DNA of 52,428 nt, from IMG/VR virus record IMGVR_UViG_3300033153_009436, positions 1 through 52,428 of that record. One strand, given 5' to 3'. The notes under the pieces are model-generated. The model was given only the letters and a program-made list of their open reading frames with translations, searched no databases and was not told where the DNA came from. Both the position numbers and the translations under genes were made by a program. This document shows, piece after piece, positions 3,001 through 52,428 of this stretch. Source of the DNA: a virus. Lineage: Duplodnaviria > Caudoviricetes. How positions within the stretch are numbered: position 1 is the stretch's first letter; each line of letters begins with the position of its first letter.

Positions 3001-6000
3001 AGCATGGAATGAAAAGCTTCCAGGGAATCTTGGAGATAAAAAAGGAATCATTAGCCGTTATCTCACTGAAGATGAAATAGCAGATCGTATAGGACTAAAA
3101 CCAGAAGTGGGAGATCCTGAATATCACACATATGTATTGAATTATAGTTCTCTAGTATTAGAATCAATGCTTGAATTTGCTAAAGAAGCTGATGAAACTC
3201 TTATAAAACTATGGGAGACGAAGAAAACTAAAGACTTGATGGGTGCATTAGAAACACTTCAATTACCTGTAACAAGAAAGGAATATAAAGAATATAAGAA
3301 AAAACATGACAGAGAGCCTTATGTAGGAGCTATGAATAATGATGTACTTGATTATAAGTTTGCTCTTCTTGGACATAAAGGAATGACAGAACCCCAGGAT
3401 GGACGTAGAATAGGTTTGGCATTTGAACCAGCAGATGTTAAAGCATTAACTGATCTGTGGGATTGGATGGCAGGAGTAAAAGATGAAAAAACAGGAGAAT
3501 GGATAATGGAGCCCGCATTGCCTGAGTTTGCAGAAACAGTTAAAGAAGAAGGTATTGATGTAGACAATTTACTTGGAAAAGCTTTAACTTTTAAAAATAA
3601 TAAAGAAGGTTCTAGATCTATTGGAGCTGTTGTATTGCCTAATATAGTTATGAGTCTCTTGTCTGAACATAATATTAAAATACGTTCTAAGAAAAAAGGA
3701 AGGACTGAAGAAATTTCTCAACTTAGATTAAATGGTCATACTTATAAAAACTTTAATATAAAGTATGAGATAAATCCTGAGACAGGAAAAGAAATTAAAA
3801 CGAAAGGATTAAGAAGTCAATATGTACTCTCTGCACTTATAACGGCAATGACTGATAATGCTAAAGAAAGATTATCAGCAAAACTTGGATTAAATAAAGA
3901 TGCACTTGCTGTTGTAACTAATCTTGTAGCTTTAGGTGTTGGTATTAGGACAGCAATTTTATTAATAAATCAACCAAGTATTAAAGAGGCTTATATTTCA
4001 GCCATTGATAAAGAGAAACCCAGAGATCCAGGAGTAGCTGCAATTCTTCGTTTAGAAATTGACCAAATGGATAAGGATTACGGAGATGAGGTTTATCTTG
4101 TACCTGTTACTGATAAACAAATGATCCATGTATTGAGAAAAGAAGAGAATGTAGATTTGGATATGGAAAAACAATTCTTAACTGCACATGAAATAAAAAC
4201 ATATACATCAAAGATGCTCTCTCTTGTCAAATTAACTAAAGGAATGGGTAGAGATACTGAAGCTATTAATCAAAGAGATATAGATATAAGAGATCTGGGA
4301 ATTGATCTTACTGATTCAGAGTTTGCTACTAAAAGGGATGCTGATGGAAACTTAATCCCAATAGATGTAAGGAAAATTTTTAATGAAGAACAGGGTGCAA
4401 CAAGTTGGCAATCTAGATTTTATACCATCTATAAAGAGTTTACTCAACAATTATTACCTTCTGTATTCCTAACGAGAACTCCAGATTTTATAAAGATGAA
4501 AGATGTAGTTCTTGCTAACTTAACAAATGATAGTTTCTATATGAGCCCATATAGAGTTAATCAAATTGAAAAAGACTTACTCAGTTATATTACCATAAAA
4601 GCTTATATGAGAGCTCTTAGTGCTCAAGGTAATGACATTCTGAAGAGATCATTAGAAAATGGTTTTATATATGATCAGAAAAAACAGGATGGATTGAAAC
4701 TAAATGATGTAGTTTCAAGAATCAAAAAATATTTAAAAGGAAAAGAGAAGAAAAACTACTTTATTGAGAAATATGTTTACCAGGATAAAGCTACTGATGA
4801 TGCTAATAACTCAGGAGTTAATAGATTGAGATCAAACACTTGGACAAAAATGAGTGATAGTCAGATTGTAAACATACAAAATAGTTTTCTTGAACTTTAT
4901 AGTGATCTTAATACACGTGAAGATGCAATTCATCTGGTACATTATGTACTTGTTAAAGATGCCATGCAATATAAGGGTGGTACTATATTAGATGCAATTC
5001 CTGCATTTATGTTTGATAATCTACTTCAACAAGTAAAGAGTACTCATAATGCATTTAATCTTAAAACTAAAACAGAAGAAGCATTTAAAAGAGTGCTAGG
5101 AAGCAGTCTTCCAGAATTATATAATGAATTTGTGGATGGATATCTCTCCGCACAAAATAATTATTGGCTTTTAAAGAAAATGAAAATAGACGATACTTCT
5201 ATTTATAATCCTAAGAAGTATGTGAGTACTGGTGTTAAAAGGTATGGTGCTAATATAAGAAAGGTGGCTCAGGATGATGAAAATAGTTTGTATGTATTCG
5301 CAGATAATGCTACTGGAACAGGAAAGGTTGGACAGCAACTATTAAGAGGAATTCCTAATGCTAAACCACTTCACTATAAATTAAACGTTGGATACTCTAA
5401 AAGTGATTACTATAATGATGCCCACTTTACAGAGAATGTTCAAATCATAGATGAGAATATAAATGATATCCAAAAGTATGCTAAGGATAACGCAGTAGAG
5501 ATTATTTTTCCTGATAACATATTGGCAAATACTAAAAAACAAACTGAGGCAGAGGTTGCTAGGATGAAGAAATATATGCCAAAAACACTTGAGTATTTAC
5601 AAGAAAGAATTAAAGCGGAATTTGGTTATAATATTACTACAGGTGTTAGTGCTAAATTAAAAATAGACACAGAGGCACTTATGCAACCTGTTCATATAAA
5701 TATGGAAACCAAAAAACTTATTGTTGATCTTTATAAAGGACTTGGCGTTTATACAGATAAAGAAACAGGAGTAAGGAAAATGAAAAGGTGGGCAGTAAAA
5801 AAGAAAAAAGGAGAAAAAAGAGCTCCGGCTTGGAAGGTGGCTTTAGGTGACTTTAGTACACTTAAAAAGAACATGAGTAAGATCATGAAAAAAGGATGGA
5901 ATACTTTTGATACTGAGAGTATTGAAGGAAAAAATATAGCACGTGTAGGATTTCCTTATATGGTAAGAGTAAATGTTGGAGGAGTTAGGGAAGAGTGGAG

Positions 6001-6757
6001 ATACTACAAATTAGAGACAGTGTGGGGAAACAAAGATTCAAAGACAACTGATTTTGTTTCTATGATTGAAGATGGAGATCTTATGGCATATGGTAATAGA
6101 GCTGAATATGTTGAGATGGAACTTAATGGTACATTTACACAGAATCCTATTGGTTTTGTATATGGGAAAGAAGGTTTACCAACAAATGCTGAGGTAAACC
6201 AATTTGTTGATGACAAAAATGAAACTATTGGAATAGAAGAAGAACCTGAGATTTTACATGATGAAGAGAATCTAGCTCAACTTCAGGAAGACTTTGAGCA
6301 GCAAGCTATTGAAAATGCAGTAATAGGTGCAGATGAAATAATCTTTGATGAGGATAACATAATTGTCAGAAAAGGAGAGACTAAAGGTAATATAGCTGAT
6401 GCATCAGTAATTAAGAAAATACAAGATAAGATCAAGGAAGAATCTCAACCAGTAGAAAAATCAGATGTTATATCAGAAGAAGAAGCAATAGACTTATCAG
6501 CAAATTTTGAAGAAGAAGTTGAAGGACGAGGACAACCGTTATCTGAAGGTTTAAAGAAGTTAATTAAATCTAATAAACCAACGCATTCTGTGATCACTAA
6601 TTGGTGGAACAAGTTAGAACGTCCAGACAGAGCAAAAGTAAGAAATGCTTTAGGAATACAGACATTAGATGGGGTAATTGATGAATTTACTTCAGAAAGT
6701 AATACCTTTACAGAGGAAGAGTTTATTAACGATATAAAATTATGCCACTTAAAATGA
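2..6757 (+). CDS. Virion-packaged multisubunit-type (double-psi beta-barrel) RNA polymerase, crAss-like; 5' end lies outside the window
   Basis: Catalytic loop ISGADFDIDK (DFDIDK at 2831-2848) preceded by RIPSQ, and an upstream MRLQM motif, as in crAss-like virion RNAPs. The frame is open from position 2 (EPAAPAEDISK...) into the called Met at 305. Confidence 0.92.
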   Translation, partial: EPAAPAEDISKLPIQKRIQALIDNGTIVSTSTHNLGGRFPIIININGVPTPFYRSSVGTEGKVKGNWYPFFGFGKNKNNSWLIKGPVKDSKEGYGIAAIQEMMEYLNNTLNWDHSIDKVLTVKKHPFFNVLTVVSEEDFNKEVFGKDVSNINKKTATDFIREQLNKIEEAPAVPAVEEPVYDPVLYEKDTAIKEALEESAVNGDTFKEALEKLNITEEDLQEMIAERMMTEFKEFEILVGGLKADTEISEDIKHGLISETGKVTEEGKKSMEALNLREEDPGFNLAQVFFNDWLNTKSFNDLLLGDQAMTLKNAIDQIKRAKMQNAAGPSAASIIAAPKHGIDHPNQHISLLSFDDPEFKQKYGVFEENTKPGEEANAQVYGTVKAFRYMWFGIGQLSIKQVELLDKIEKGEWVSSEEFWGNVSQGMRGFKDDNAMTNSKKFVYGDGKTYLKFSLVTLSKELTSRLDENGNWIALETRKELHNLRVKMEKWESETDQNGNLIRETIAIAGPASAIKMLKRNLTTATEAFSGNDINSENITDLDANYMRLQMVNPSNKLEIIDPTQIKTIITSEQKDSVEVWIGNKKMTVGQIRKAYHKSIADRVTLQYIGRRNLIFTLPAAMDELHKSINLGEITTDLRSFLRYALINLEASQVKTQMLEFFSLDLTGEPKYDLNNSLTMQKFQELFLSYFSKGVLQEHMPGHSLSLVSGKGMKVWKKVIAIDEETGQPSRWEIVRTDEWVAMDIKDKNKILNAKSTKLDWDNTKERTFSGLKVGDYYIDGLRANVKAYKENGEEEGDSYSEMMMPAHFRSVMDNVIVTNPNFYKSKEEILSEWWNWAYKSNWSPEAQQDIVRSDIEDFDPARSRKEFADWKNYPYNGIKDEFGDNGNNKSQKIPDVVGKMFSIRIPSQDKHSAVNVMLVDFLPVFYGSSAVFPEDLIEISGADFDIDKVYTQIKDFYNEGRNFYEYGKATTEEGQYADYIRYIIKQGNKKGNVISDALEAWNEKLPGNLGDKKGIISRYLTEDEIADRIGLKPEVGDPEYHTYVLNYSSLVLESMLEFAKEADETLIKLWETKKTKDLMGALETLQLPVTRKEYKEYKKKHDREPYVGAMNNDVLDYKFALLGHKGMTEPQDGRRIGLAFEPADVKALTDLWDWMAGVKDEKTGEWIMEPALPEFAETVKEEGIDVDNLLGKALTFKNNKEGSRSIGAVVLPNIVMSLLSEHNIKIRSKKKGRTEEISQLRLNGHTYKNFNIKYEINPETGKEIKTKGLRSQYVLSALITAMTDNAKERLSAKLGLNKDALAVVTNLVALGVGIRTAILLINQPSIKEAYISAIDKEKPRDPGVAAILRLEIDQMDKDYGDEVYLVPVTDKQMIHVLRKEENVDLDMEKQFLTAHEIKTYTSKMLSLVKLTKGMGRDTEAINQRDIDIRDLGIDLTDSEFATKRDADGNLIPIDVRKIFNEEQGATSWQSRFYTIYKEFTQQLLPSVFLTRTPDFIKMKDVVLANLTNDSFYMSPYRVNQIEKDLLSYITIKAYMRALSAQGNDILKRSLENGFIYDQKKQDGLKLNDVVSRIKKYLKGKEKKNYFIEKYVYQDKATDDANNSGVNRLRSNTWTKMSDSQIVNIQNSFLELYSDLNTREDAIHLVHYVLVKDAMQYKGGTILDAIPAFMFDNLLQQVKSTHNAFNLKTKTEEAFKRVLGSSLPELYNEFVDGYLSAQNNYWLLKKMKIDDTSIYNPKKYVSTGVKRYGANIRKVAQDDENSLYVFADNATGTGKVGQQLLRGIPNAKPLHYKLNVGYSKSDYYNDAHFTENVQIIDENINDIQKYAKDNAVEIIFPDNILANTKKQTEAEVARMKKYMPKTLEYLQERIKAEFGYNITTGVSAKLKIDTEALMQPVHINMETKKLIVDLYKGLGVYTDKETGVRKMKRWAVKKKKGEKRAPAWKVALGDFSTLKKNMSKIMKKGWNTFDTESIEGKNIARVGFPYMVRVNVGGVREEWRYYKLETVWGNKDSKTTDFVSMIEDGDLMAYGNRAEYVEMELNGTFTQNPIGFVYGKEGLPTNAEVNQFVDDKNETIGIEEEPEILHDEENLAQLQEDFEQQAIENAVIGADEIIFDEDNIIVRKGETKGNIADASVIKKIQDKIKEESQPVEKSDVISEEEAIDLSANFEEEVEGRGQPLSEGLKKLIKSNKPTHSVITNWWNKLERPDRAKVRNALGIQTLDGVIDEFTSESNTFTEEEFINDIKLCHLK

Positions 6758-6891: not shown

Positions 6892-9800
6892 ATGAAATGT
6901 TATAATAGAAGTGCTCCAGAATATCAAGTTCTTACATCTAAATATAAGAGTGTACTTGCTGTTGATAGTATTATAAATAAATGGCAAGATCTTCATAAAA
7001 CTGAAAATTTTCCTACCCTTTCAGATGCGGAGGAGATGATGGAGTCTAGAAAGGTGGTTTTTAATTTAAAGAAAAGAGAATTTGCAGAAACTGTTCTTGC
7101 TAATCTTAGCAGAAAGAATTGGATCAGTAAACTTGGAAAAGATTATTATGTAAATAAATCAAGTGGCTTAACAAGAGGGTTTGATGCAGGAGTACTATGG
7201 AAGAATATAAGAAATATTAATAAGTATCTAGAGTTTAAAAATATTCCTTTAGAAACAATAGAAATACAAAAGAAAAAACCATATAGGATCACTGTTAAAG
7301 AAAATTTATTTACAAGACAAGATATCATACAAGAGAGTAGGGAAAATGATGGGGTTCATACTGCAGATGTGATTGAACATTTAGTAAGAATGTTTCCTGG
7401 AGTAAATGTACAAGCAGTAAGTGTGGCTGCTGCTAAGGAATACTATGATCGTCTTCCTACATGGCAAAAAGCAAAACTTTCTTTTGATCAGGTGAAATCT
7501 TATTATGTAAATAACCAGGTAAAACTTATAGAAGGAAGAACCACTGCAGAAACTTCTATAGAAGAGATACTACATCCTTTTATAGATGGTATAAAAAATG
7601 ATAACATTAAACTATTTGAGGGTCTCTTGTCTGAAGCAAAGAAGAACTTTCCTCAACTTACTCAACAGATTGAAGATTCTTATACAGAGCGAAGAGGGTT
7701 TACTACTGAAGAAAGAGATCTGGAACTTGTAACTCAAGCTCTCTCAAGACATTTTAATAAAGAATTTAAAGAAGAACCCACTATAGGTTGGGAAGCTAAA
7801 GTTAAAGAATTTTTGGAGTGGTTCATGAATATAATAGAGAACCTTCATGAATATCTTACTGGAAAAGGTTTACAAGTTAGTGTTATAAATCCTAATGCAA
7901 CTATGACAGATCTTGCAAGACTTTTAAACACTAAAGATCTGGAGTTTACAACAGAAGAAGCTGTAAGTAGAAAGATAAGGTATTCTCTAAATCCTGAGAA
8001 GAAAAAAATGTTAGATAAGATCATGGGACCTGCTAATCCTGTACAGAAGGCATTAATGATGAAGATGTTTCATCTGGCTATAACAAGTAAGAAGGATACA
8101 GAAGGTTCATTAACTGCTAATGTTAGTGAACTTACGGGAAGTGATCCTTTAGTTGTATTGAATGAACCAAACCACACCTATTATGATCTGGAAACAGGTG
8201 AGGAATATACATCTGTAACAAAAGCAATTAAAGGAACATTTGTTAATAAAGGAGATAAGCAATTAAATCTTGATATTGGAAATGATTTTGATGCAATAGC
8301 AGATGGACTGGCAGCAGGTCTCACATATGAAGAGATACTTCCTAGATTAGTGGTAGTTCATAAATCAATGAAAAAGGTAGGAAAAGGAAAAGATGCGTTT
8401 ACTGTCTCAAATGCATTCATAGCATATAACCAGCTATTAGGTACAATAGAAACTATAAAACAGAATGGTTCAATTATAATACCACAGGTTATATTTGCAG
8501 ATGCAGATTCAAAGATAGCAGGAATGGCAGACTTGGTAGTCATTAGTCCTGAAGGAAAAATAGGAATCATAGATCTCAAAACAGGGAAAGGACCAATAAA
8601 GGCAGCAGGCTATGATAAACCACACCCATTAGAAAAGGATAGTATTCTTAAAGAAAAAGGTGTAGATGAACTCTCAACTAGAAACCAGCATGGTATACAA
8701 GTTAATACTTATAGACGTATGGTGGAGAATCTAGGATATGAAGTTTTAGATCAACAATCATTTGGCATATCTACTCTTCATATGAATGTTGATATAGAGG
8801 GGTATGGTAAAAAACAAATATTTAAGGATAAATTTGAGTATGATGGTTGGGAATCTCATGCTCCTTCCAAGAATCAACCTTGGGTAGATAAGATTGTTCC
8901 TATTAAGAAAAAGGAGGTATCTGCTGCAGATATAGCAAATGCAGAAGAAGCAGCAGGTGTAGATAATCCTACTAGAGATGAAGATTTTTTATCTGATGAG
9001 GATGCTATGCCAGAAGAAATAGAGACTGGTGCATTATATGCAGTTCTCTTTGAAGCACTTCAAGATTTTACAATAGGTCTAAAGAAGAGAAAAGAAGCTA
9101 TTGAGCTAATGAGAGATGGCATTTTTCTTGATAAAACAAGACAAGAAAATGTAGAAAATATAGCAGATACAATGTCAAAAATAAATGTAGCTCTTAATGA
9201 GGGAAGAGATGCTGTTGAGATAGTATACACAGAGTTATTAAGAGATTCAATTGCTGAGATTAAAAAATTTACTGAGTATATTAAGGATCCTATAAATTTT
9301 AATAAGAATAAAACTCAAAGTACACTTGTTTTGAAGCTCATGTCTGAGCTCAATAAACTTGAGACTGTCACAGCAGCTGATGGAACAAGAACTCAAGGTC
9401 TTATTGATGAAGCAATGGATAATTATTTTAGATCTTTTGTTATAGATAACTCTAATAGAGATTTTTCACCAGAAGATTTAGATGAGTTAATGACTAAGGC
9501 TAAAGATATAAGTTTATGGGAAGCAAGTTCATATGATCTAGATAGTTCATCTGATCCGCTCTCAGCACTGATGGCCAAACTGTATAAAAGAAAAAAACAA
9601 GAAGTATTAGATAGAGTTGATAATAGGAATAATAGTATAAGAGTAGTGCTGGCAAAACTTTTAAAACTATCTAATGGTAACAAAATTGACTATAGCTTCA
9701 TGTTACAAGAAGATAATACACGTTATATTCAAGAGATAGGATATGATTATTTTAGAATGGCCGCAGATCTTAGAAATGATATATATGCAGATGAAGATAT

Positions 9801-12396
9801 GAATGAGGGTGAGTATATATTCATAGAAGATCTTGAAACTGCTAAACCAGAAGATATTGCTTTTAATAAAGAGCTTTATAAGAGAAAGAAAAAATATACA
9901 GAATTTTTAAGATCAGAAATAAAAACATCAGAGGGTTATAAAGATGGTACTTATCATAGATATACAAAAGAATTTAAAGTATTACGTGCAAAGTATCAAA
10001 TATATAATCCTATAGGGAATGGGTTTTGGGAAAGAAGGAAAGATGTATCAGATGCAGCCTATGCAAGATTTGAGGCTAGAGAATTTGATGTAAGAGATGC
10101 ACAGTTTGCTACATTTGATTCTAACAATGAATTTACTGGAGTAACTAGACTTGATACAATTAGAGTGCCTAAGAAAAAGCATAGTGAAATAAGATCAGTA
10201 AGTGCTCCTACACAAAGCCAGCCCAATGGTAAGGATATGCGGGATGCTAAATGGGTTAAACTGATGAATCCAGATAGTGCTTTAGGGGAAGCTCAGAAGG
10301 ATTTTTATTTAATGTTTAGAAGAATGTTTGAAGAGGAACTTCTAGCAAAACTGCCTATGTCAGTACGAGATAATATGCTGGGTAAGATTCCATTACAAAA
10401 AGATGCATTATATGATACATTAAAAGATAAACCTAATATTGTAACACGTCTCTGGGCCAAAGCTACAAGAAGTGCAACTGATTTCTTTACTGAGACAGGA
10501 TCTGCTAAAAAAGTTATGACAGATGAGAATGGTAATTTTATTGATACACTTCCAATATGGATGGTGGGTAGTCCAAGAAATGAGAAGGCACTTAAGACTA
10601 TTGAGAATAAAATTATGGCTCTTAAGAAAAATTATAATAGTGGAGCTCTTTCAACTTTACAATATGAAGAACAAAAGCAAGAACTTGAAGGAAAAAGAAG
10701 TAGAATATTAGCACAACCTACACGAGATGAAATAAGTAAAGATTTAGGAGATAGCTTGCTTAGGTTTAGCCACATGGCTGAGAATTATGAGGTGATGGGA
10801 ACTATAGAAGATACTCTCACAGGAATGATAAAGATCTTAGAAAAGAGAGAATATACTCCTGCAAGTGGAGCTAAACTGATGGGTAGTATAAAAGGTAAAA
10901 TGAAAGAAGTGGGCATTCCAGGTGTATCTACTGGTGGTGAAGCTGAAATAGTAAAGAGAGCCAAGAAATGGATGAAAATGGTTTACTATGATAATGATAA
11001 AATGACAAGAAACTGGTTTGACAAGGCTACTGCAGGTCTTATAAGGTATTCATCTCTTTCTTATGTTGCATTTAACCCATTTGGAAATATCAATAACTAT
11101 ACAATAGGTAGAATTAATAATGCAATTGAACAAGCTGGCGGATTATTCTTTGGAACTAAAGAATATACAAGAGCTACATATGAATTTAATAAAAGAGGTC
11201 TTTCTGATGTAGTAAGAAAGACATCATACTTGGCAACTAAAAAAGCTTATGAAAAGTATATACCTCATAGTAAGTATGAAGTACTAGTAGAACTTTATAG
11301 AATGATGGATGCTAAATCTGATATTCGTGAGTCTGGACAATTTGACAAAAAAGAAACTTTGTGGGATAAGTTTACGGGATTTGGATATATGCTACAAGAT
11401 GCTGCTGAATATAATGTACAAACTAAAGTAGGTATGGCTGTCTTGATGACTAAACAGATTAAGAATAGTAAAACAGGTGAAACATTAAGTTTATATGATG
11501 CATATACGCTTAATGGGGATGGTACAGCCACATTAAAGGAAGGTTATGATACTTTAATAGATAGAGAAGGTAAGGAACTTAAAGATTTTAGTAATGATGT
11601 ACGTTATGATATACGTAATGAGATACGTGAAGTTAATAAGCAGATCCATGGTAACTATGCTTACGAGGACAGAATGGTTATACAGTCACACGCATTAGGA
11701 GAATTAGGAGCTCAGTTTCATAAATGGGTTATTCCTGCAATTAAGGCAAGATTTAGACCTGAATATTTTGATGAAAATGTAGGTTGGTTAGAGGGAAGAT
11801 ATTTATCAATGTGGAGTTTTATGAAATATGCAGCTACACATATAGGAGAAATGCAGAAGTGGAGTACTAATTTTCAAGAGCAAGTTAGAGGAGGACCAGA
11901 GCAATCTAGAATGAAAATGCTAAATGTATGGAGAACTTCAGCTGAGTTGGCATTAATGATGACTACTGTAATAACAGCAATACTGCTTGAGATGCTATTT
12001 GAAGATGATGATGATGACTCAGTTTTACAAAAGAGACTTGAGAATGCATTAATTTACCAAGCTGACAGAGCACACAAAGAAATGATTCAGTTTATGCCTT
12101 TTCTTCCACCATTCACTGGTACTAAACAAATTTACCAAATGATGAAGTCTCCAATTGCATCTACCAGGACACTAGGTGAGCTGGCAGAGGCATTATCAGC
12201 AACAATGGACTATGGATATGGAAAGATGTTCCTGAGTGAGAAAGAATTTAGAACTAATCCTAAGTATGTGTACCAACAGAAGCCAAGAAAAGGGTACCTT
12301 AAGTTGGCAAAACAATGGATGGATGCTGTACCTATTCTATATGGTATACAAAGATGGTATGGATATGATAGACAGAAAAGTTTTTATATTAAATAA
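6892..12396 (+). CDS. Large virion (ejection/cargo) protein with a degenerate zincin-like domain and a PD-(D/E)XK nuclease-like domain
   Basis: 1834 aa, directly after the virion RNAP as in crAss-like phages. Motifs IEEILHPF and IAGMADLVVI...IIDLKTG...QVNTY; helical C-terminal half. Confidence 0.8.
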   Translation: MKCYNRSAPEYQVLTSKYKSVLAVDSIINKWQDLHKTENFPTLSDAEEMMESRKVVFNLKKREFAETVLANLSRKNWISKLGKDYYVNKSSGLTRGFDAGVLWKNIRNINKYLEFKNIPLETIEIQKKKPYRITVKENLFTRQDIIQESRENDGVHTADVIEHLVRMFPGVNVQAVSVAAAKEYYDRLPTWQKAKLSFDQVKSYYVNNQVKLIEGRTTAETSIEEILHPFIDGIKNDNIKLFEGLLSEAKKNFPQLTQQIEDSYTERRGFTTEERDLELVTQALSRHFNKEFKEEPTIGWEAKVKEFLEWFMNIIENLHEYLTGKGLQVSVINPNATMTDLARLLNTKDLEFTTEEAVSRKIRYSLNPEKKKMLDKIMGPANPVQKALMMKMFHLAITSKKDTEGSLTANVSELTGSDPLVVLNEPNHTYYDLETGEEYTSVTKAIKGTFVNKGDKQLNLDIGNDFDAIADGLAAGLTYEEILPRLVVVHKSMKKVGKGKDAFTVSNAFIAYNQLLGTIETIKQNGSIIIPQVIFADADSKIAGMADLVVISPEGKIGIIDLKTGKGPIKAAGYDKPHPLEKDSILKEKGVDELSTRNQHGIQVNTYRRMVENLGYEVLDQQSFGISTLHMNVDIEGYGKKQIFKDKFEYDGWESHAPSKNQPWVDKIVPIKKKEVSAADIANAEEAAGVDNPTRDEDFLSDEDAMPEEIETGALYAVLFEALQDFTIGLKKRKEAIELMRDGIFLDKTRQENVENIADTMSKINVALNEGRDAVEIVYTELLRDSIAEIKKFTEYIKDPINFNKNKTQSTLVLKLMSELNKLETVTAADGTRTQGLIDEAMDNYFRSFVIDNSNRDFSPEDLDELMTKAKDISLWEASSYDLDSSSDPLSALMAKLYKRKKQEVLDRVDNRNNSIRVVLAKLLKLSNGNKIDYSFMLQEDNTRYIQEIGYDYFRMAADLRNDIYADEDMNEGEYIFIEDLETAKPEDIAFNKELYKRKKKYTEFLRSEIKTSEGYKDGTYHRYTKEFKVLRAKYQIYNPIGNGFWERRKDVSDAAYARFEAREFDVRDAQFATFDSNNEFTGVTRLDTIRVPKKKHSEIRSVSAPTQSQPNGKDMRDAKWVKLMNPDSALGEAQKDFYLMFRRMFEEELLAKLPMSVRDNMLGKIPLQKDALYDTLKDKPNIVTRLWAKATRSATDFFTETGSAKKVMTDENGNFIDTLPIWMVGSPRNEKALKTIENKIMALKKNYNSGALSTLQYEEQKQELEGKRSRILAQPTRDEISKDLGDSLLRFSHMAENYEVMGTIEDTLTGMIKILEKREYTPASGAKLMGSIKGKMKEVGIPGVSTGGEAEIVKRAKKWMKMVYYDNDKMTRNWFDKATAGLIRYSSLSYVAFNPFGNINNYTIGRINNAIEQAGGLFFGTKEYTRATYEFNKRGLSDVVRKTSYLATKKAYEKYIPHSKYEVLVELYRMMDAKSDIRESGQFDKKETLWDKFTGFGYMLQDAAEYNVQTKVGMAVLMTKQIKNSKTGETLSLYDAYTLNGDGTATLKEGYDTLIDREGKELKDFSNDVRYDIRNEIREVNKQIHGNYAYEDRMVIQSHALGELGAQFHKWVIPAIKARFRPEYFDENVGWLEGRYLSMWSFMKYAATHIGEMQKWSTNFQEQVRGGPEQSRMKMLNVWRTSAELALMMTTVITAILLEMLFEDDDDDSVLQKRLENALIYQADRAHKEMIQFMPFLPPFTGTKQIYQMMKSPIASTRTLGELAEALSATMDYGYGKMFLSEKEFRTNPKYVYQQKPRKGYLKLAKQWMDAVPILYGIQRWYGYDRQKSFYIK

Positions 12397-16121: not shown

Positions 16122-16559
16122 ATGGCAATAAAAAAAATATATAGAACAAACCCAGATCCAATCTTGGTAAAAGCTGATAATGATCAGGCACAAGGAGCAT
16201 TAGCTAAGATAGCACATATAAATTGGTTAATTGAGCAGATAGATGAACCAACTTTAGAATCTGTATCTGTGGTAGGTTCAAACTTTGAGATGGATATAAG
16301 AAAGGGAGATTATTTTAATATCACACTTCCTGATGGACCCGGTCCTTATACATTATCTTTTACTTACTTAACAGTAGGAACTTATATTGTATATATTAAG
16401 CAAAATGCTACAGGCAATGGTGTAGCAACATTAACAGGAGTAGAGTGGCCTGCGGGAGTTGCTCCCACTATAACCGCAACCCCAGATAAGATAGATATTA
16501 TAACATTGATTTATGATGGAACCTCCCTTAGAGGAGTTATAACACAAGATTACGTATGA
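16122..16559 (+). CDS. Virion fibre/decoration protein
   Basis: C-terminal beta-rich domain (IKQNATG...WPAGVAPTIT...DII) typical of phage fibre-associated modules; N-terminus shared with the 18370 ORF. Confidence 0.65.
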   Translation: MAIKKIYRTNPDPILVKADNDQAQGALAKIAHINWLIEQIDEPTLESVSVVGSNFEMDIRKGDYFNITLPDGPGPYTLSFTYLTVGTYIVYIKQNATGNGVATLTGVEWPAGVAPTITATPDKIDIITLIYDGTSLRGVITQDYV

Positions 16560-18091
16560 AAGTAATACCTTTTGGCTTTTTTAATGTTGGTGGTGGAATC
16601 ACCCCCTTTCCCAATACTTATAGTCTTGACTTTGATGGAGTGGATGATTATGTTGATTGTGGACATGTAGATGCACTTATTAGTGCAACTACATTTACTA
16701 TTTCAGTATGGTTTAAATTAGATGATGCAGTAGGAGGCTATGATGTGATTGTCTCACAGTCTCAACTTGCAGGACGGCTTAATATCTATCATCAGCCAGG
16801 AGAATTAGGTTTTCAGGTAATGGATTTAACAATATGTTATCTCGCTATAGACTTTACATCTAATGATTGGACTCACGTTGCAATGGTATTTGATGGCAGT
16901 CAAGGAGGATTAATTCCAGGACCACCATATTATCAGCCAGGACTACAATGTTACTTAAATGGTTCAAAGATTACGACCTTTACTGATGGACTTGGAATAG
17001 TTCCAGCAGTTTCTGCAGCATTAACTAATAGTCTTTTAATTGGTAAATATGAGATAGCTGCAGGTTATGAGTTAGGTGGAAATGTGGATGAATTAAGCAT
17101 CTGGAGTACGGCACTAACTGATGCAGATATTTCTACACTCTACAACTCAGGTACTCCTACTAATCTAAATACTGCTTTAGCAACTACGCCTGTTATCTGG
17201 TATAGAATGGGGGATTCTGGAACATTTTTCAACGGAAATTGGGAACTGAAAAACCAACCTCAATTAGATAATTGGTCAAGTCATTCAATGAACTTTGATG
17301 GGATTGATAACTATGTTAACTGTGGTGCTGCATCTTTAGGGATTACAACAGCAATTACAATATCAGCATGGGTAAAACCAACGGTTCTAGATCCTTCACC
17401 CAGCGGGGGAGTTATAGATAAATATGCTACTGGTCCCTTTAGTGGATGGTCTATATGGCAATCAACTGCATTCCCAGGCAAATGGAGAGCGAGTTTTGGA
17501 ATTGAAGAGCCTTCTAATCCAGGTGTTTATATTAAAACAGAAGTAGAATTTGATGTTCCTAATACAGATTGGCAGCATGTAGTTGCAACTTTTGATACTA
17601 CTGGAGATTTAAAGTTGTATCATAATGGAAGTCTTGAAAATACAGATCCTAATGAAGCTTTCTCTATAATTAATACTAATCTTGAAGAAATAATATTAGG
17701 GGCTAGAAGTGATACACCAGCAGGAGAATATGCTGGATTCATAGACGAAGTTGCTATTTGGGATGTTGCATTAGATCTAGCTACAATAGCTTCAATATTT
17801 AACGCAGGAGAGCCAAATGATTTAACTTTAGCAGCTTCTTATACTACAGGAGGGGGAACTGATAAAAGTGGAGATTTACAAGGCTATTGGAGAATGGGCG
17901 AAGATGCAATGTGGGATGGAGTTGCAAATGAATTGACTATTCCAGATGCTTCAACCAATTCCAATGATGGCACAAGTAGTGGAATGGCTGAAGAAGATAA
18001 AATTAATAATGCACCAGGAAACATTAATCAAGGACTCAGTGATGGAATGGGGGAAACAGCACCCTCTGGCAGATCAACTGATGTTCCTTAA
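16556..18091 (+). CDS. LamG/concanavalin A-like tandem-domain protein (receptor-binding/fibre)
   Basis: Two repeats: SLDFDGVDDYV/SMNFDGIDNYV, TISVW/TISAW, WTHVA/WQHVV, GNVDE/GFIDE, WYRMG/YWRMG. Confidence 0.85.
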   Translation: MKVIPFGFFNVGGGITPFPNTYSLDFDGVDDYVDCGHVDALISATTFTISVWFKLDDAVGGYDVIVSQSQLAGRLNIYHQPGELGFQVMDLTICYLAIDFTSNDWTHVAMVFDGSQGGLIPGPPYYQPGLQCYLNGSKITTFTDGLGIVPAVSAALTNSLLIGKYEIAAGYELGGNVDELSIWSTALTDADISTLYNSGTPTNLNTALATTPVIWYRMGDSGTFFNGNWELKNQPQLDNWSSHSMNFDGIDNYVNCGAASLGITTAITISAWVKPTVLDPSPSGGVIDKYATGPFSGWSIWQSTAFPGKWRASFGIEEPSNPGVYIKTEVEFDVPNTDWQHVVATFDTTGDLKLYHNGSLENTDPNEAFSIINTNLEEIILGARSDTPAGEYAGFIDEVAIWDVALDLATIASIFNAGEPNDLTLAASYTTGGGTDKSGDLQGYWRMGEDAMWDGVANELTIPDASTNSNDGTSSGMAEEDKINNAPGNINQGLSDGMGETAPSGRSTDVP

Positions 18092-43366: not shown

Positions 43367-43387
43367 TGTTTATTATTTTAAAATTAG

Positions 43388-43460
43388 TAGCGGGTATAGG
43401 ATTTGAACCTATGACCTTCAGGATATGAGCCTGACGAGCTGACCACTGCTCTAACCCGCT
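43388..43460 (-). tRNA. tRNA-Met(CAT), initiator-like
   Basis: Cloverleaf: acceptor AGCGGGT/ACCCGCT, D stem GAGC/GCTC, anticodon arm TCAGG-CTCATAT-CCTGA, T arm ATAGG-TTCAAAT-CCTAT. No encoded CCA. Confidence 0.92.
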
Positions 43461-47832: not shown

Positions 47833-48171
47833 CTATCTTTTTGTTTCAAGTATTTCTCTCTCTTTTATATACTTGTGTTGTTTGTACGACACTGATGGCG
47901 TCTTTTCTAATGAAACAATAACTTTTTGTATGTTTTCTATATATAATGCTCCTATTTCTAAAGAAATTGTTTCATTATGCATATCCTCATCTAACCATTC
48001 AATACAATCTTCTAATGTATTTATCTCTTCATAAAATGGATTTATATACATATCTGTTTTTTGTATAATTGGTTGATGATATGTTATTTGAGCATTTACA
48101 GCTAATGCTACTAATGTCATTATACTAAAAAATAGTAGTGCTGTAACCAAACCTTTTATTGAATCTTTCAT
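47833..48171 (-). CDS. Hypothetical protein with signal/TM segment
   Basis: ORF track; N-terminal hydrophobic stretch. Confidence 0.65.
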   Translation of the reverse strand: MKDSIKGLVTALLFFSIMTLVALAVNAQITYHQPIIQKTDMYINPFYEEINTLEDCIEWLDEDMHNETISLEIGALYIENIQKVIVSLEKTPSVSYKQHKYIKEREILETKR

Positions 48172-48758
48172 ATTATAAAATTTTTAGACATGTTTAACAT
48201 AAAACTATCTGGATAACCATTTAAATATTTTTTAATTATATCAACATTAGAGTATTTCAATTTTTCTCTAAGTGTTTTATAAAGTTCTCCTAGTTTTTTT
48301 AATTCATTAATATTATCAAAGTGATTATTAAATTTCACCTCATTTTTACTAGTTTTATACATAATTGTGTATTCATTTCCGTATATAACTATTTTTGGAT
48401 TAGCATCTATATCTATAAACCATGTATTCCATGGACCACCTGTTGAAACTTTTGTAGTGTTAGGACAAACTTCTTTTCCAAGTATTGTTAATTTTTCTCT
48501 TAACCATTTAGGAGTATTTCCACGTTTATGATATGTTGTATTGGTCATATGTTTATCAATATTATATTCTTGATGTACAAAACCACTATAATAAGCATTA
48601 GTTACATTAATTATTCCTTTATCAGTCTCAATCCCATTACAAAAACTAACATCAAATGAATGACCTTTAAATAAACAATTTCTTCCGCCCTTTACTATAC
48701 TTTGATAATCATCAAAACAAGCTTCTATTTTTTTAAGTTTTTTCTCTAACTTTTTCAT
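48168..48758 (-). CDS. Hypothetical protein
   Basis: ORF track. Confidence 0.7.
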   Translation of the reverse strand: MKKLEKKLKKIEACFDDYQSIVKGGRNCLFKGHSFDVSFCNGIETDKGIINVTNAYYSGFVHQEYNIDKHMTNTTYHKRGNTPKWLREKLTILGKEVCPNTTKVSTGGPWNTWFIDIDANPKIVIYGNEYTIMYKTSKNEVKFNNHFDNINELKKLGELYKTLREKLKYSNVDIIKKYLNGYPDSFMLNMSKNFII

Positions 48759-48777
48759 AGTTGTTTTAAATTATTAT

Positions 48778-49161
48778 TTATGGAACATCTACAGTAGAAG
48801 GATCAGGTAAACCTAATAACAATTCATTATCTCTCTGTACTCTTTCTCTAAATTGCTCTGTTTTACGATCATATACTAAACCTTTGTAAGTCAGTATTTT
48901 TGCTCTTATTTCTCCTTCTCTCTCATCATCATCAGGCCAGTAACAATCTGTAGTATCAGTTTCCCAATGAACTGCAGCTTCAATTAATCTCCTCATATTA
49001 GGTTCAAAATCCTCATCTTTGTTATGACCTATAAATACCCTTTCTAATATTTGTGCAGCTTCTTTCTTAGTCATCTCAACACCCTGTTTTTTTCCTTCAT
49101 CAAGAACTTCCTGAGCAGTAATAACAATCATTACTTTATTATCTATCATCTGTACTTTCAT
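48778..49161 (-). CDS. Hypothetical protein
   Basis: ORF track. Confidence 0.7.
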   Translation of the reverse strand: MKVQMIDNKVMIVITAQEVLDEGKKQGVEMTKKEAAQILERVFIGHNKDEDFEPNMRRLIEAAVHWETDTTDCYWPDDDEREGEIRAKILTYKGLVYDRKTEQFRERVQRDNELLLGLPDPSTVDVP

Positions 49162-49170
49162 AACTCTATA

Positions 49171-49353
49171 CTATTTTTTATTAGTTCTTTCTTTAGTTAT
49201 ATGATATTGTAATAATATTGTACTAATCACAATACCAACAATACTTAAACATCCTGCAATAATGAAAACTTCAATGTTTATAGTACTTGCTAAAACAGTT
49301 AAAAAAATAAATATAAATATAGGAATCAATAAAAAAATCAATTTCTTTTCCAT
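49171..49353 (-). CDS. Small 2-TM membrane protein
   Basis: Two hydrophobic helices. Confidence 0.6.
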   Translation of the reverse strand: MEKKLIFLLIPIFIFIFLTVLASTINIEVFIIAGCLSIVGIVISTILLQYHITKERTNKK

Positions 49354-49357
49354 AATA

Positions 49358-49660
49358 CTATTCTTTAAATTTAAATCTTACTGCTACAAATGGTAATACA
49401 ATCATTAAACCATGATCATATGCTGCATAAAATCCAATTCCTTTTACAAACTCAAGTTTAATTGTAGGAATTATATCTATATCCATCTTATATGCCTGGA
49501 TAAATGCTATAACTGCAGCGATATGGAATATTATTACTATTAAAATAAATGTAGGTATATCAGTTACTACATCTATTGTTCCTAACAATAAACCAATATC
49601 TATAACTGCTAACATTGCAGGCATTACTATTAAATACAAAAATTTATATAGTCTCTTCAT
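49358..49660 (-). CDS. Membrane protein
   Basis: Two or three hydrophobic segments. Confidence 0.65.
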   Translation of the reverse strand: MKRLYKFLYLIVMPAMLAVIDIGLLLGTIDVVTDIPTFILIVIIFHIAAVIAFIQAYKMDIDIIPTIKLEFVKGIGFYAAYDHGLMIVLPFVAVRFKFKE

Positions 49661-49832
49661 TTTTCTTTAGTTTTATATGTTTAGTCACTGATTTTTTATA
49701 TACTTCACCCTTCCTATTTTTAATTCCAGGTTGCTCAGTTATTTCAACTATTTGTTTATAATATTTATTTCTTGAAATTTCAATAATCTTTTTTGCTATC
49801 ATTTTTTCTATTTTTATGAAATTCTTCATCAA
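49644..49832 (-). CDS. Small basic hypothetical protein
   Basis: ORF track; start uncertain. Confidence 0.5.
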   Translation of the reverse strand: MMKNFIKIEKMIAKKIIEISRNKYYKQIVEITEQPGIKNRKGEVYKKSVTKHIKLKKNEETI

Positions 49833-49968
49833 TTTTTTGCAAATTATCCATTAGTTTAGCTTCACTTCTCTTTTCTTTGGCTTCTTTAGGCTTATCAAAG
49901 ATCTCAAAGGCTAATGCTTCTTTTCTTAGATGTTCTGCCATTTTTTGAAATGGTGTTTTTCTACTCAT
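49780..49968 (-). CDS. Hypothetical protein
   Basis: ORF track. Confidence 0.55.
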   Translation of the reverse strand: MSRKTPFQKMAEHLRKEALAFEIFDKPKEAKEKRSEAKLMDNLQKIDEEFHKNRKNDSKKDY

Positions 49969-50001
49969 ACAAATATTGGTCTATTATAAAATGGGTTTAT
50001 A

Positions 50002-50217
50002 TCATTCATTTATTTTCTTTATTGAGGTTACATTAATTGGAGTAAGATCATCAAAATAGATAGTATATAAAAAGCCACCCTGTTTTTTTTGTTTTTTACT
50101 AACATCCTCCCAATGTAAAGAATCCTTCCAAATTGGACTGTCTTTTACATTCTTCCTAATATTTTTATCATCAATAGATGAAAATACTTGTTCTAGCATT
50201 AACTTTTTGGTTTTCAT
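50002..50217 (-). CDS. Hypothetical protein
   Basis: ORF track. Confidence 0.6.
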   Translation of the reverse strand: MKTKKLMLEQVFSSIDDKNIRKNVKDSPIWKDSLHWEDVSKKQKKQGGFLYTIYFDDLTPINVTSIKKINE

Positions 50218-50239
50218 AAATTTCTGGTTTTAAAAGGTT

Positions 50240-51021
50240 AGAATAAAAGGTTGAGTGTTGGCCTTTAGTATTATCATTCTGATCCTTTTCAAGATCTTAC
50301 ACACACACTGCATTACGGCAGGTAGATAATATGTTCACGTGAAGTGAAGTTCACGCTCTCTTTACAATTGGGGTCATAGATTCCTTTTCTTACTAACTTT
50401 CTTCCCAGAATTAACAGAATGGCTTCTGCTAGTTAAATAATACTCATTCCTCTCATCATCAGCCTTGCGAGCTTCTAATGCCTACATATTTCAGCAGGAT
50501 AAGAACATTGTTGCCTTTAGTGGCATCCCAAAAGTCTCCAAGTTATTTTGCTTTTTATCTAAATTACTAAAATTTAGTTTAAAGGTTCCAGGTAAATGAC
50601 AGAAGACACTTAGAGTTTATATAATCATGCTACCTTTGGGGTAGTTTAGACTATAACTCCTATCTGTTTTAAGCTGCCAAGCCTACTCACTACGATACAT
50701 TTAACATCAGTGTATTTCTACAACCAAATCAAAATGTCAGTTGATTACAGCTTCACATCCGGCAAGATGTTACTACCATAACTTATCACAATTCTTATTG
50801 ATGTTTCCATCTCAATCACCAGCCTGTCTGATGATCTATATCTCTAGCAACCTGTAGGCCCATTCCAAGACATAGATATTGTAATACTCTTCAGTGAAAT
50901 GCAAGTAAACTTACATCCCCAACCTTGTGCCTTATACACTTAGTCAGGTTTATCCCATTACTGGTTTATCCTTAAGGCCACGAGAGCTGACCTATTACCC
51001 CGAAGGGTTATTCTTTATTCT
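50240..51021 (-). ncRNA. Candidate giant structured ncRNA (~780 nt, GOLLD/ROOL size class)
   Basis: No ORF of 60 aa or more in any frame. Nested long-range stems; UUCG and GNRA tetraloops read on the - strand. Confidence 0.75.
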
Positions 51022-51173
51022 CTAGTTTGTTCATTACACCATTGACATTCATGAAATCTATCACATGTACATTCAATAATGCCATAATTAACTGAATCTA
51101 ATGCTGCATCACCATTTAATAATGATACATCTATAACATCTACAATTCTACAAATATCCTTATCTTTATCCAT
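51015..51173 (-). CDS. Small Cys-rich protein (52 aa, CTC...CQWC)
   Basis: Read by hand: MDKDKDICRIVDVID...ECTCDRFHECQWCNEQTRE. Confidence 0.55.
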   Translation of the reverse strand: MDKDKDICRIVDVIDVSLLNGDAALDSVNYGIIECTCDRFHECQWCNEQTRE

Positions 51174-51189
51174 ATATTTCTATTTATTA

Positions 51190-51573
51190 TTAATTTAAAC
51201 AAACTTCAAATTTATGAAATTTAAAAGTTGGTACATAAGTATCTTCATCCTCCTCTATTTCCAAATACTCTCTTGTCATTTCAATTAAACCCATTTCACT
51301 TGCTATTACAGCAAGTGGTTCACTCTTAACACAAGCCTTTATTATTTCTTCAGTAGTTGGTCTCTTGAAATCATATTTATCATCCATATGATGCTCACCT
51401 GTACTATTATACCAACCAAAATTACGGTTATTAGAAGTAAGATATTCATTACCTTCTGTCTCTGCAAAAATATCACCTGCAATATAACCATCAGCTATAC
51501 CCACTTCTTCACCCTTGTATATACAAAAGGGATTTCTATTTATAAGTTTAAAAGTTCCTTTTATTTTTATCAT
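51190..51573 (-). CDS. Hypothetical protein
   Basis: ORF track. Confidence 0.7.
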   Translation of the reverse strand: MIKIKGTFKLINRNPFCIYKGEEVGIADGYIAGDIFAETEGNEYLTSNNRNFGWYNSTGEHHMDDKYDFKRPTTEEIIKACVKSEPLAVIASEMGLIEMTREYLEIEEDEDTYVPTFKFHKFEVCLN

Positions 51574-51835
51574 TTTTAGGGAGATTATTTGTTATTTCTT
51601 TTATTTTATCTTTAACCCACGTATTCTTCTCTTTCTTGCATTGATCTTTTATTTGTATTACTATGACGGTTGTACATACAATAAGTGTAACAACAGTAAA
51701 TGTAACAAAAACAGGTATTATTCCAAAAGCTCTCTCTAAACCTGCTACTCCAAGAGAACCAATTAAACTTATTATTAATAAAGTTCCAAAGAACTTACCC
51801 CAATCAGTTGGGTTATCCATTTTAAGCTTTTTCAT
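51548..51835 (-). CDS. 2-TM membrane protein
   Basis: Two hydrophobic helices. Confidence 0.65.
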   Translation of the reverse strand: MKKLKMDNPTDWGKFFGTLLIISLIGSLGVAGLERAFGIIPVFVTFTVVTLIVCTTVIVIQIKDQCKKEKNTWVKDKIKEITNNLPKNDKNKRNF

Positions 51836-51846
51836 AATATTTAGTT

Positions 51847-52077
51847 TTAAGGTTCAACCTGACCACCATAATCAGAACAATGTTCTATACGTAAAGGACG
51901 AATTTCATCAAACACATCTTCTATAAGCTCCTCAATCTTATCAATAGCTAAACTTACACTACTTGATTTAATATTTGAAGAATCATTAGCCTCCTTTAAT
52001 TTCCATTTAGTTTCTTCTAATGATCCAATTGCTGTACTAAATACATCATCTAATTTTTCATATTCTACTACTGTCAT
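51847..52077 (-). CDS. Hypothetical coiled-coil protein
   Basis: ORF track. Confidence 0.65.
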   Translation of the reverse strand: MTVVEYEKLDDVFSTAIGSLEETKWKLKEANDSSNIKSSSVSLAIDKIEELIEDVFDEIRPLRIEHCSDYGGQVEP

Positions 52078-52095
52078 GATCTTTAATTTTAAAAA

Positions 52096-52428
52096 TTATG
52101 TTATTGAATCTCCACTTCCTATTGCTTTTTTATTGATGACACCTGCTTCCACAATATCTTTCTCAAAAGCTATTACCTCATCATCATAGCTGTCCCAATT
52201 TGGTTCAGGTTCAATTGTATGATCTTTAACTATATAAACTACTGGTTTAGCATACCATTCATCAGTTGGCAATTCAAAAGCATCTCTTAACTCTTGATCA
52301 TTAATAGAACAGTTAATTTGATCAACATATTCTCTAACCATTCTCCCTAAAGCTTTTACAGCACCATAATGCTGTGTTTCAAATCTATCTAACCTATCTC
52401 TAGCAGATACTACCTTCTTTGGATCAGC
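52096..52428 (-). CDS. Hypothetical protein, 5' end outside the window
   Basis: The frame stays open from 52341 to the window edge (ADPKKVVSARDRLDRFETQHYGAVKALGR-MVREY). Confidence 0.7.
   Translation of the reverse strand, partial: ADPKKVVSARDRLDRFETQHYGAVKALGRMVREYVDQINCSINDQELRDAFELPTDEWYAKPVVYIVKDHTIEPEPNWDSYDDEVIAFEKDIVEAGVINKKAIGSGDSIT

Follow-up and report, generated by a model that had tools for sequence, protein, structure and literature searches.

GOLLD RNAs are among the largest structured RNAs of bacteria and phages and have lately been shown to form nanocages free of protein, and their biological function is not established in the literature. Kretsch et al. 2025 (PMC12286853) describe 806 of them, which a cmsearch at E < 1e-5 drew from bacterial genomes at NCBI and phage records in GenBank, as well as a solved representative, env-38, an RNA-only D7 homo-14-mer cage with its 3′ domains arranged as rings, its 5′ domains as caps and a disordered linker inside; its 3′ region comprises residues 421–833 of 833. 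GOLLDs are further described as lying near tRNA islands, with a linker that sometimes bears a tRNA (PMC12286853; PMC5737381). Here we compare with this class a locus in the IMG/VR virus record IMGVR_UViG_3300033153_009436 (Duplodnaviria; Caudoviricetes), all 52,428 bp of which we call the window. A gap of ~800 nt between open reading frames (ORFs) near its end is very probably the gene, on the minus strand, for a divergent giant structured RNA of the GOLLD class, carried by an uncultivated and distantly crAss-like phage. An earlier note on this DNA, made from its letters alone, had proposed either a GOLLD-like giant non-coding RNA on the minus strand or a new class of giant RNA. The first of these is supported because the locus has an end-to-end Rfam match, covariation in the 3′ domain and many full-length homologues; the second is not needed.

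An end-to-end match to the GOLLD model

The 3′ domain of the element is homologous to GOLLD. A permissive scan of positions 50000–51300 aligned 50248–50664 on the minus strand to positions 1–416 of the 416-position Rfam model (RF02032) at 45.8 bits and E = 1.5e-10, so the comparison with Rfam that the earlier note had suggested does return GOLLD, at a score under Rfam's gathering score, which is 150. Across the 1.3 kb scanned around the element, all other Rfam families stayed at E ≥ 0.79, and ROOL, OLE, group I and II introns, ribonuclease P (RNase P) and transfer-messenger RNA (tmRNA) gave no match even at E ≤ 10. Because the model is of about the same size as the 3′ region of env-38, a match confined to the 3′ half of the gap is what would be expected of a GOLLD. 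The E-value also lies below the E < 1e-5 of the cmsearch described by Kretsch et al. (PMC12286853); metagenomic virus records fall outside the set searched there, and by that cut-off the RNA is a GOLLD.

The match recurs in related phages. In locus L038, whose homologue is 61% identical to that of the window, the model aligns over positions 1–416 at the same relative place with 47.2 bits (E = 5.9e-11) and a score bias of just 0.8 bits, compared with 10.7 bits for the match in the window. Among 31 related viral records, RF02032 is found at E ≤ 1 in 20, and 19 of the 31 are matched end to end (45.7–100.4 bits, E 1.4e-29 to 1.7e-12). Matches at noise level score 16.5–20 bits and cover ~170 nt of sequence.

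Several observations weigh against this assignment. A score of 45.8 bits is far under the gathering score, which none of the 31 related records reaches, and a scan of the window against Rfam in gathering mode reported a tRNA-Met (43388–43460) alone and no GOLLD. Scanned with RF02032, the whole record of the window gave no match at E ≤ 1, with 10 candidates scored, and 67 kb comprising the loci of four relatives gave nothing at E ≤ 0.01; 11 of the 31 related records are without a match, including the record that holds L038. As L038 matches in a short scan and the 67-kb scan is blank, detection depends on lax filters. We take the blanks in the whole record and in the 67 kb to be misses of the filters or of a first look, given that scans of 1.3 kb yield 45.8 and 47.2 bits.

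Further points on the same side lie outside the Rfam scores. The single sequence folds only marginally better than its shuffles, which is weak evidence: the comparison with shuffles, another check put forward in the earlier note, gives the minus strand a marginal z of −1.73, which 1 of 20 shuffles equals or betters, and the plus strand a z of +0.11. As this folding energy is unconvincing, it is comparative evidence that carries the case. The RNA of the window also has no tRNA island next to it, GOLLDs being described as often near such islands.

In favour of the RNA there is a weak hint of expression. The RNA-library run X17 holds a 572-nt contig, ~91% alike and wholly within 50287–50858, and a 93-nt contig at 50829–50903, with the flanks uncovered, from which nothing follows; contigs carry no strand and, even in an RNA library, may derive from DNA.

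A score of less than one-third of the gathering score, with 150 bits reached by none of the 31 records and by none of 20 divergent loci scanned with RF02032, could instead be taken to mean that the element is a new class of giant phage RNA, similar to the GOLLD 3′ domain by convergence or by compositional chance; the model contains a long A-rich unpaired stretch that could favour AT-rich DNA, as the bias of the match in the window might reflect. We consider this very unlikely. The match runs end to end and recurs in sequences that are ~60% identical, in L038 with hardly any bias, and the scores are continuous from 45.7 to 100.4 bits, whereas noise covers only ~170 nt at much lower scores. The covariation of the fold, given below, bears on the same choice.

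A large family of homologues

The element belongs to a large family. Four full-length homologues, 59–61% identical to the element of the window, lie in loci around helicase homologues, and nhmmer homology in relatives spans query positions 23–790. Two patterns drawn from invariant columns recovered 31 further viral loci; full-length copies, present in about 30 viral loci, represent 23 distinct sequences including the window, and these make up alignment A2. At least 120 metagenome stretches carry a pattern for a conserved 5′ motif; of 120 such loci compared with the family profile, 117 match, and in 62 the match is nearly full-length. A second alignment, A3, comprises the window and 24 metagenome or genome sequences, each <90% identical to any A2 sequence. 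Against GenBank phages, blastn in distant mode found no match to the element of the window, and the same holds for the element of L080.

The 5′ motif pattern was also found at 11 loci in prokaryote genome contigs, of which ten share the short motif alone and were set aside as chance; the element itself is present only in L109. This full-length member (L109:493–1285, minus strand; 428 bits by nhmmer) sits on a 4.6-kb contig of an alphaproteobacterial metagenome-assembled genome, probably a phage contig misplaced in the bin. An 18-mer pattern taken from the GCAA hairpin was discarded, as all 29 loci that it recovered are unrelated protein-coding sequence with charged EEARKAEE-type repeats and hold no gathering-mode GOLLD.

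A conserved two-domain fold

The features of the RNA, from the whole gene to its parts, are as follows.

50240–51014, minus strand: whole candidate RNA gene, ~770 nt, with approximate ends (ORF-free gap, nhmmer homology, alignments A2 and A3)
50666–50992, minus strand: 5′ domain, 327 nt, 13 helices and 83 pairs (RNAalifold on A2; on A3, 72–100% of cells paired, with compensation in 13 of 13 helices)
50949–50970, minus strand: conserved 5′ motif GAUAAACCAGUAAUGGGAUAAA, in which A-rich runs flank a short GNRA hairpin (loop GUAA)
50800–50811, minus strand: GAUG-GAAA-CAUC hairpin (helix 8), in the invariant UUGAG...GAAA...CAAUAAG block
50248–50664, minus strand: 3′ domain (end-to-end match to RF02032, model 1–416; covariation on A2 and A3)
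50598–50664, minus strand: first stem-loop of the 3′ domain, with a CAAA(A) loop, model 1–62 (87% and 77% paired on A2; helices 14–15 on A3)
50544–50597, minus strand: A/U-rich linker, 54 nt, aligned to unpaired model positions 63 to ~129
50536–50615, minus strand: pseudoknot 1 (helix 16), 50608–50615, in the bulge of the first stem-loop, with 50536–50543, closing off the linker
50364–50535, minus strand: long-range helix, 50527–50535 with 50364–50372, which encloses the central multi-helix junction; the '[[[ ]]]' helix of the model in corrected register
50331–50508, minus strand: pseudoknot 2 (helix 18), 50503–50508 with 50331–50336
50454–50480, minus strand: hairpin with an invariant CGCAAG loop region (GCUCGCAAGGC), the loop being identical to the Rfam consensus (A2 helices 7–8, 88–94%)
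50249–50263, minus strand: 3′ terminal hairpin with an invariant CUCA in its loop, followed by a U-rich tract (model 401–416; helix 30, 86.7%)

This fold is conserved. The consensus structure of Rfam, projected through the row of the window onto A2 independently of RNAalifold (95 pairs, 81 of them canonical in the window), is paired in 77.8% of cells, compared with 37.7–47.6% in slid controls; 56 of the 95 pairs are compensatory, with both sides changed, against 28–35 in the controls, and the covariation score is 0.434 against 0.09–0.16, with the observed values reached by none of 500 shuffles. Fifteen of the 17 projected helices pair in >48% of cells, and the other two are one long-range helix that was misregistered: in the register given by cmscan it pairs in just 29–36% of cells (helices 4 and 5 on A2), and a shifted register was adopted in its place. 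RNAalifold on A2 yields 139 pairs, 107 of which have at least one compensatory change.

The 5′ domain derived from A2, the Rfam-projected 3′ domain, the corrected long-range helix and the two pseudoknots were combined into a curated model of 191 pairs. A2 is the source of the 5′-domain fold, the corrected helix and the crossing helices, and the curated model was counted on A3, where it is paired in 84.6% of cells compared with 36–45% in slid controls. There, 142 of its 191 pairs are compensatory (70–84 in the controls) and its covariation score is 0.508 (0.10–0.14), again with 0 of 500 shuffles reaching the observed values; the support extends to every one of the 13 helices in the 5′ domain and to the two pseudoknots. 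Covariation among homologues, on which the earlier note had wished to see its proposal judged, is therefore present.

In pseudoknot 1, all eight pairs are canonical in the window, and on A3 73.6% of cells are paired and eight of eight pairs are compensatory; its counterpart in the Rfam consensus, in our own reading of the consensus line, is formed by the complementary model segments 46–52 and 130–136. Pseudoknot 2 is canonical at six of six pairs in the window and paired in 99.3% of A3 cells, with four of its six pairs covarying. Its strands align with model positions 151–156 and 324–329, which carry complementary consensus letters (again our own reading) and whose pairing the covariance model leaves unscored. 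The long-range helix in its corrected register (helix 17) is paired in 85.1% of A3 cells, with nine of nine pairs compensatory. Because both pseudoknots fall on mutually complementary segments of the consensus, and such pairs go unscored by the covariance model, they are extra evidence of common descent, and together with the covariation of most projected helices they argue against a new class that resembles GOLLD by convergence or chance.

Outside these helices, the linker has no conserved pairing in the alignments, and it varies in length and sequence among homologues, some of which have an extra hairpin in this region (columns 530–628 of A2). A clade-specific extra hairpin at 50509–50526 is seen in both A2 and A3. 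The 5′ motif GAUAAACCAGUAAUGGGAUAAA has one match in the window where shuffles lead us to expect 0, contains 16 bases that are invariant in the first five sequences and, used as a pattern, recovered 20 viral loci. The paired core of the RNA spans 50992 to 50249, and its strand is indicated by many conserved G-U pairs, by the strand of the Rfam match and by the contrast in folding z. No canonical intrinsic terminator was called at the 3′ end, and the scan for promoters and terminators was uninformative, with seven promoter-like sites against 7.2 expected and two terminator-like sites, on the plus strand only.

The pairings listed in the earlier note fared differently from one another. All of the complementary segments that it named exist, with 8/8, 8/9, 7/7 and 7/7 pairs in the long-range pairings and 4/4, 4/4, 6/6 and 4/4 in the hairpins. 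Compensatory changes uphold the GAUG-GAAA-CAUC hairpin (100% of cells paired on A2, 43 cells being compensatory, and 96% on A3, with 40), as they do the GAUCUU-GAAA-AGGAUC hairpin at 50281–50296 (82% and 77%) and the GCAA hairpin at 50461–50473 (93% and 89%); the UUCG hairpin (50997–51008) is paired in 50–56% of aligned cells, in a region that aligns poorly. The nested pairing of the two ends of the RNA is not upheld. Its proposed helices (50240–50247 with 51014–51021, 50260–50268 with 50971–50979, and 50267–50273 with 50882–50888 or 50438–50444) are paired in 39–66% of cells against a slid background of 36–48%, and the strands belong instead to local covarying hairpins, at 50976–50992 and at the 3′ terminus (50249–50263).

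The gap and its neighbours

The gap is, as the earlier note had observed, the longest stretch of the window lacking an ORF of ≥50 amino acids (aa) on either strand (50218–51014, 797 nt); the next-longest uncovered stretches measure 304 nt, at the edge of the window, and 197 nt, the longest inside the window after the gap. It is also less AT-rich than its flanks, with a G+C content of 0.371 (50240–51021) against 0.261 (48000–50239) and 0.300 (51022–52428), and 0.311 over the whole window. Only ORFs of 30–44 aa lie inside it. This lack of an ORF, and nothing more, would suit a decayed protein-coding gene or a non-functional spacer, the chances of which we put at next to nil: the element is strongly conserved while its flanks diverge, 142 of 191 pairs are compensatory, and no reading frame is conserved across 47 family members, whose longest runs without a stop codon, taken over all frames, reach 72 aa at the median and 139 aa at most. 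The decayed gene that the earlier note had named as a possible refutation is accordingly not seen.

The RNA shares its orientation with the neighbouring small ORFs, and the flanking ORFs are complete (stop at 51015–51017, start at 50217). Their proteins are far less conserved than the RNA: of ~200 loci, about 100 contain the RNA, whereas the upstream 127-aa protein is found in six, the 52-aa protein in three and the downstream 71-aa protein (ORF 50002–50217) in none. A search for related loci with the 127-aa protein as query returned no relatives.

These neighbours matter for the idea that the element is a long structured untranslated region or cis-regulatory leader of an adjacent gene, for example that of the 71-aa protein. 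Such a leader would have the orientation observed and would be followed, ~25 nt past the terminal hairpin, by the downstream ATG, and promoter and terminator signals for a gene of its own do not rise above shuffles. We rate it as slightly less likely even than a new class, for the 71-aa protein has no homologue in the loci in which the RNA is common, L071 has its homologue of the 52-aa protein on the opposite side of the RNA, divergent relatives lie in tRNA islands and not ahead of genes, and a pseudoknotted two-domain fold of ~800 nt far exceeds known leaders.

Less likely again is a self-splicing intron, another ribozyme or a mobile RNA element lodged between genes. Introns occur in crAss-like phages, and both the size and the ornate structure of the element are within the range of group I and II introns, but at E ≤ 10 the scan lists neither an intron nor RNase P, tmRNA, ROOL or any further large-RNA family, no split gene is evident between the complete flanking ORFs, and neither a homing endonuclease nor a reverse transcriptase is encoded inside the element. 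A GOLLD-class RNA gene thus remains the reading that we prefer.

tRNA islands, divergent relatives and Lak phages

The sole tRNA of the window is a tRNA-Met (CAT) at 43387–43460 on the minus strand, 6.8 kb downstream of the RNA and on the same strand. For env-38, a position downstream of a Met-tRNA is described; the tRNA-Met of the window and the RNA are not adjacent. Close relatives are mostly without adjacent tRNAs, and divergent ones are island-associated, with 15 tRNAs at L078 and 11 at L087. In L116, L119, L173, L174 and L178, a tRNA separates the 5′ motif from the 3′ core, at what profile coordinates suggest is the position of the linker. The tRNA islands and linker tRNAs of these divergent relatives match the published statements on GOLLDs.

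In the metagenome loci L116, L119, L142, L159, L173, L174 and L230, the 5′ motif and the 3′ core occur in dense tRNA islands with a tmRNA gene nearby. ARAGORN calls a tRNA-His with the odd anticodon ATG at L035:2827–2901 (plus strand), overlapping the 3′ end of the RNA, and another at L077:1002–1076 (minus strand), ~250 nt downstream of the RNA; either may be a tRNA-like element or a false call.

A GOLLD-type element is also present in a Lak megaphage. In Prevotella phage Lak-A2 (MK250019.1; L233:2502–2945, plus strand), RF02032 matches over model positions 1–416 with 65.2 bits (E = 2.4e-16), an element that a scan of the whole genome with the same model missed. The profile of the present family finds its 3′ domain at E = 5e-43 and its 5′ part weakly (E = 0.005). 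With L116 as query against GenBank phages, 15 of 15 among the matches listed are Lak phages, over the same part of the query, and the search also matched the tRNA-carrying part of the query in Lak phages.

The host phage

The record, with an estimated completeness of 45%, carries phage genes for a DNA polymerase, a ribonucleotide reductase, a helicase and a tail-associated protein. Its DNA polymerase is <40% identical to any GenBank phage counterpart, and a megablast search of GenBank phages with 12 kb of the window came back empty. Two related viral records are complete, at 112 and 118 kb. Sequencing runs contain at most 0.11 of the words of the stretch, and pieces 85–95% alike are present in runs labelled marine metagenome.

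A 2150-aa protein (305–6757, plus strand) matches 47 GenBank phage records, with ~30% identity over ~140 aa and E = 4e-7. Eleven of the 12 matches listed are crAss-like phages, as are most in the tally of organism names, and the features under the matches in crAss-like phages are annotated RNA polymerase subunits. Because this resemblance covers only ~140 aa at ~30% identity, the phage would be at best a distant crAss-like relative, a placement that is weakly supported; the crAss-like host of the earlier note survives in this reduced form.

The same 2150-aa protein carries Pfam DUF7831, and its resemblance to GenBank phages is almost only to crAss-like RNA polymerase subunits. The adjacent giant ORF (6892–12396, plus strand, 1834 aa) is without a Pfam match. 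A 511-aa protein (16556–18091, plus strand) contains two Laminin_G_3 stretches (concanavalin-like lectin; E = 4e-40) and is labelled tail terminator or virion structural protein by PHROGs; it is probably a receptor-binding or fibre protein.

Discussion

In the layout of this RNA, a 13-helix 5′ domain (50992–50666) is followed by the GOLLD-homologous 3′ domain (50664–50248), within which a pseudoknot closes off the unstructured A/U-rich linker (~50597–50544). By analogy with env-38 (PMC12286853), it is probable that copies of the RNA come together, with no need of protein, as a closed homo-oligomeric cage, and this cage might act during infection as a container or scaffold for some cargo.

A bolder suggestion, which we hold only tentatively and think doubtful, is that the element belongs to a large unannotated clade of GOLLDs hidden by the Rfam cut-off (>100 contigs, all <150 bits), possibly with a distinct cage and with a role independent of tRNA islands. 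Annotation at the gathering score does miss a large clade of GOLLDs, including copies in crAss-like marine phages and in Lak megaphages. The well-conserved 5′ domain, with its 13 covarying helices and the near-invariant motif of the GNRA hairpin, conflicts with the poorly conserved 5′ region that has been published; if the 5′ cap does differ from that of env-38, a cage of other stoichiometry or geometry would be conceivable. A role independent of tRNA islands would be in keeping with an RNA that has no tRNA link and sits among small genes of a crAss-like phage. We found no paper that names both 'GOLLD' and 'crAss-like' in a search that covered neither supplements nor subscription journals, and the association appears to be unreported in the literature searched. 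The ~50 diverse full-length sequences with a validated two-domain structure provide comparative data, from which conserved contacts could be told, as well as natural variants for tests of cage formation.

Comparison with known giant RNAs

Among described systems, ROOL is likewise a large, ornate and phage-associated RNA of enigmatic role that forms RNA-only cages (Kretsch et al. 2025; Weinberg et al. 2017, PMC5737381), but the RNA of the window has no Rfam ROOL match even at E ≤ 10, and both sources describe the sequence and secondary structure of ROOL as distinct from those of GOLLD (PMC12286853; PMC5737381). The element of Lak-A2 shares with the window a sub-threshold but end-to-end match to RF02032, and differs in sitting in a 541-kb megaphage and in a 5′ part that matches weakly.

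From GOLLD itself, the RNA of the window differs in its score (45.8 bits against the gathering score of 150), in the lack of an adjacent tRNA island, in the clade-specific hairpin at 50509–50526 and in its host, a distantly crAss-like uncultivated phage with relatives in marine metagenome runs. Its 5′ domain measures 327 nt and has 13 covarying helices; for GOLLD, the 5′ region is given as ~400 nt long and as less conserved. In common with GOLLD, it has a phage origin, a total length of ~0.8 kb, a two-domain layout and a conserved 3′ domain that matches the 416-position model from end to end, and its more divergent relatives hold a tRNA at the linker position and lie in tRNA islands. Within that domain, the helices, the order of junctions, the two pseudoknots, the variable unstructured linker after the first stem-loop, the invariant CGCAAG loop and the 3′ terminal ...CUCA... 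hairpin are the same in both.

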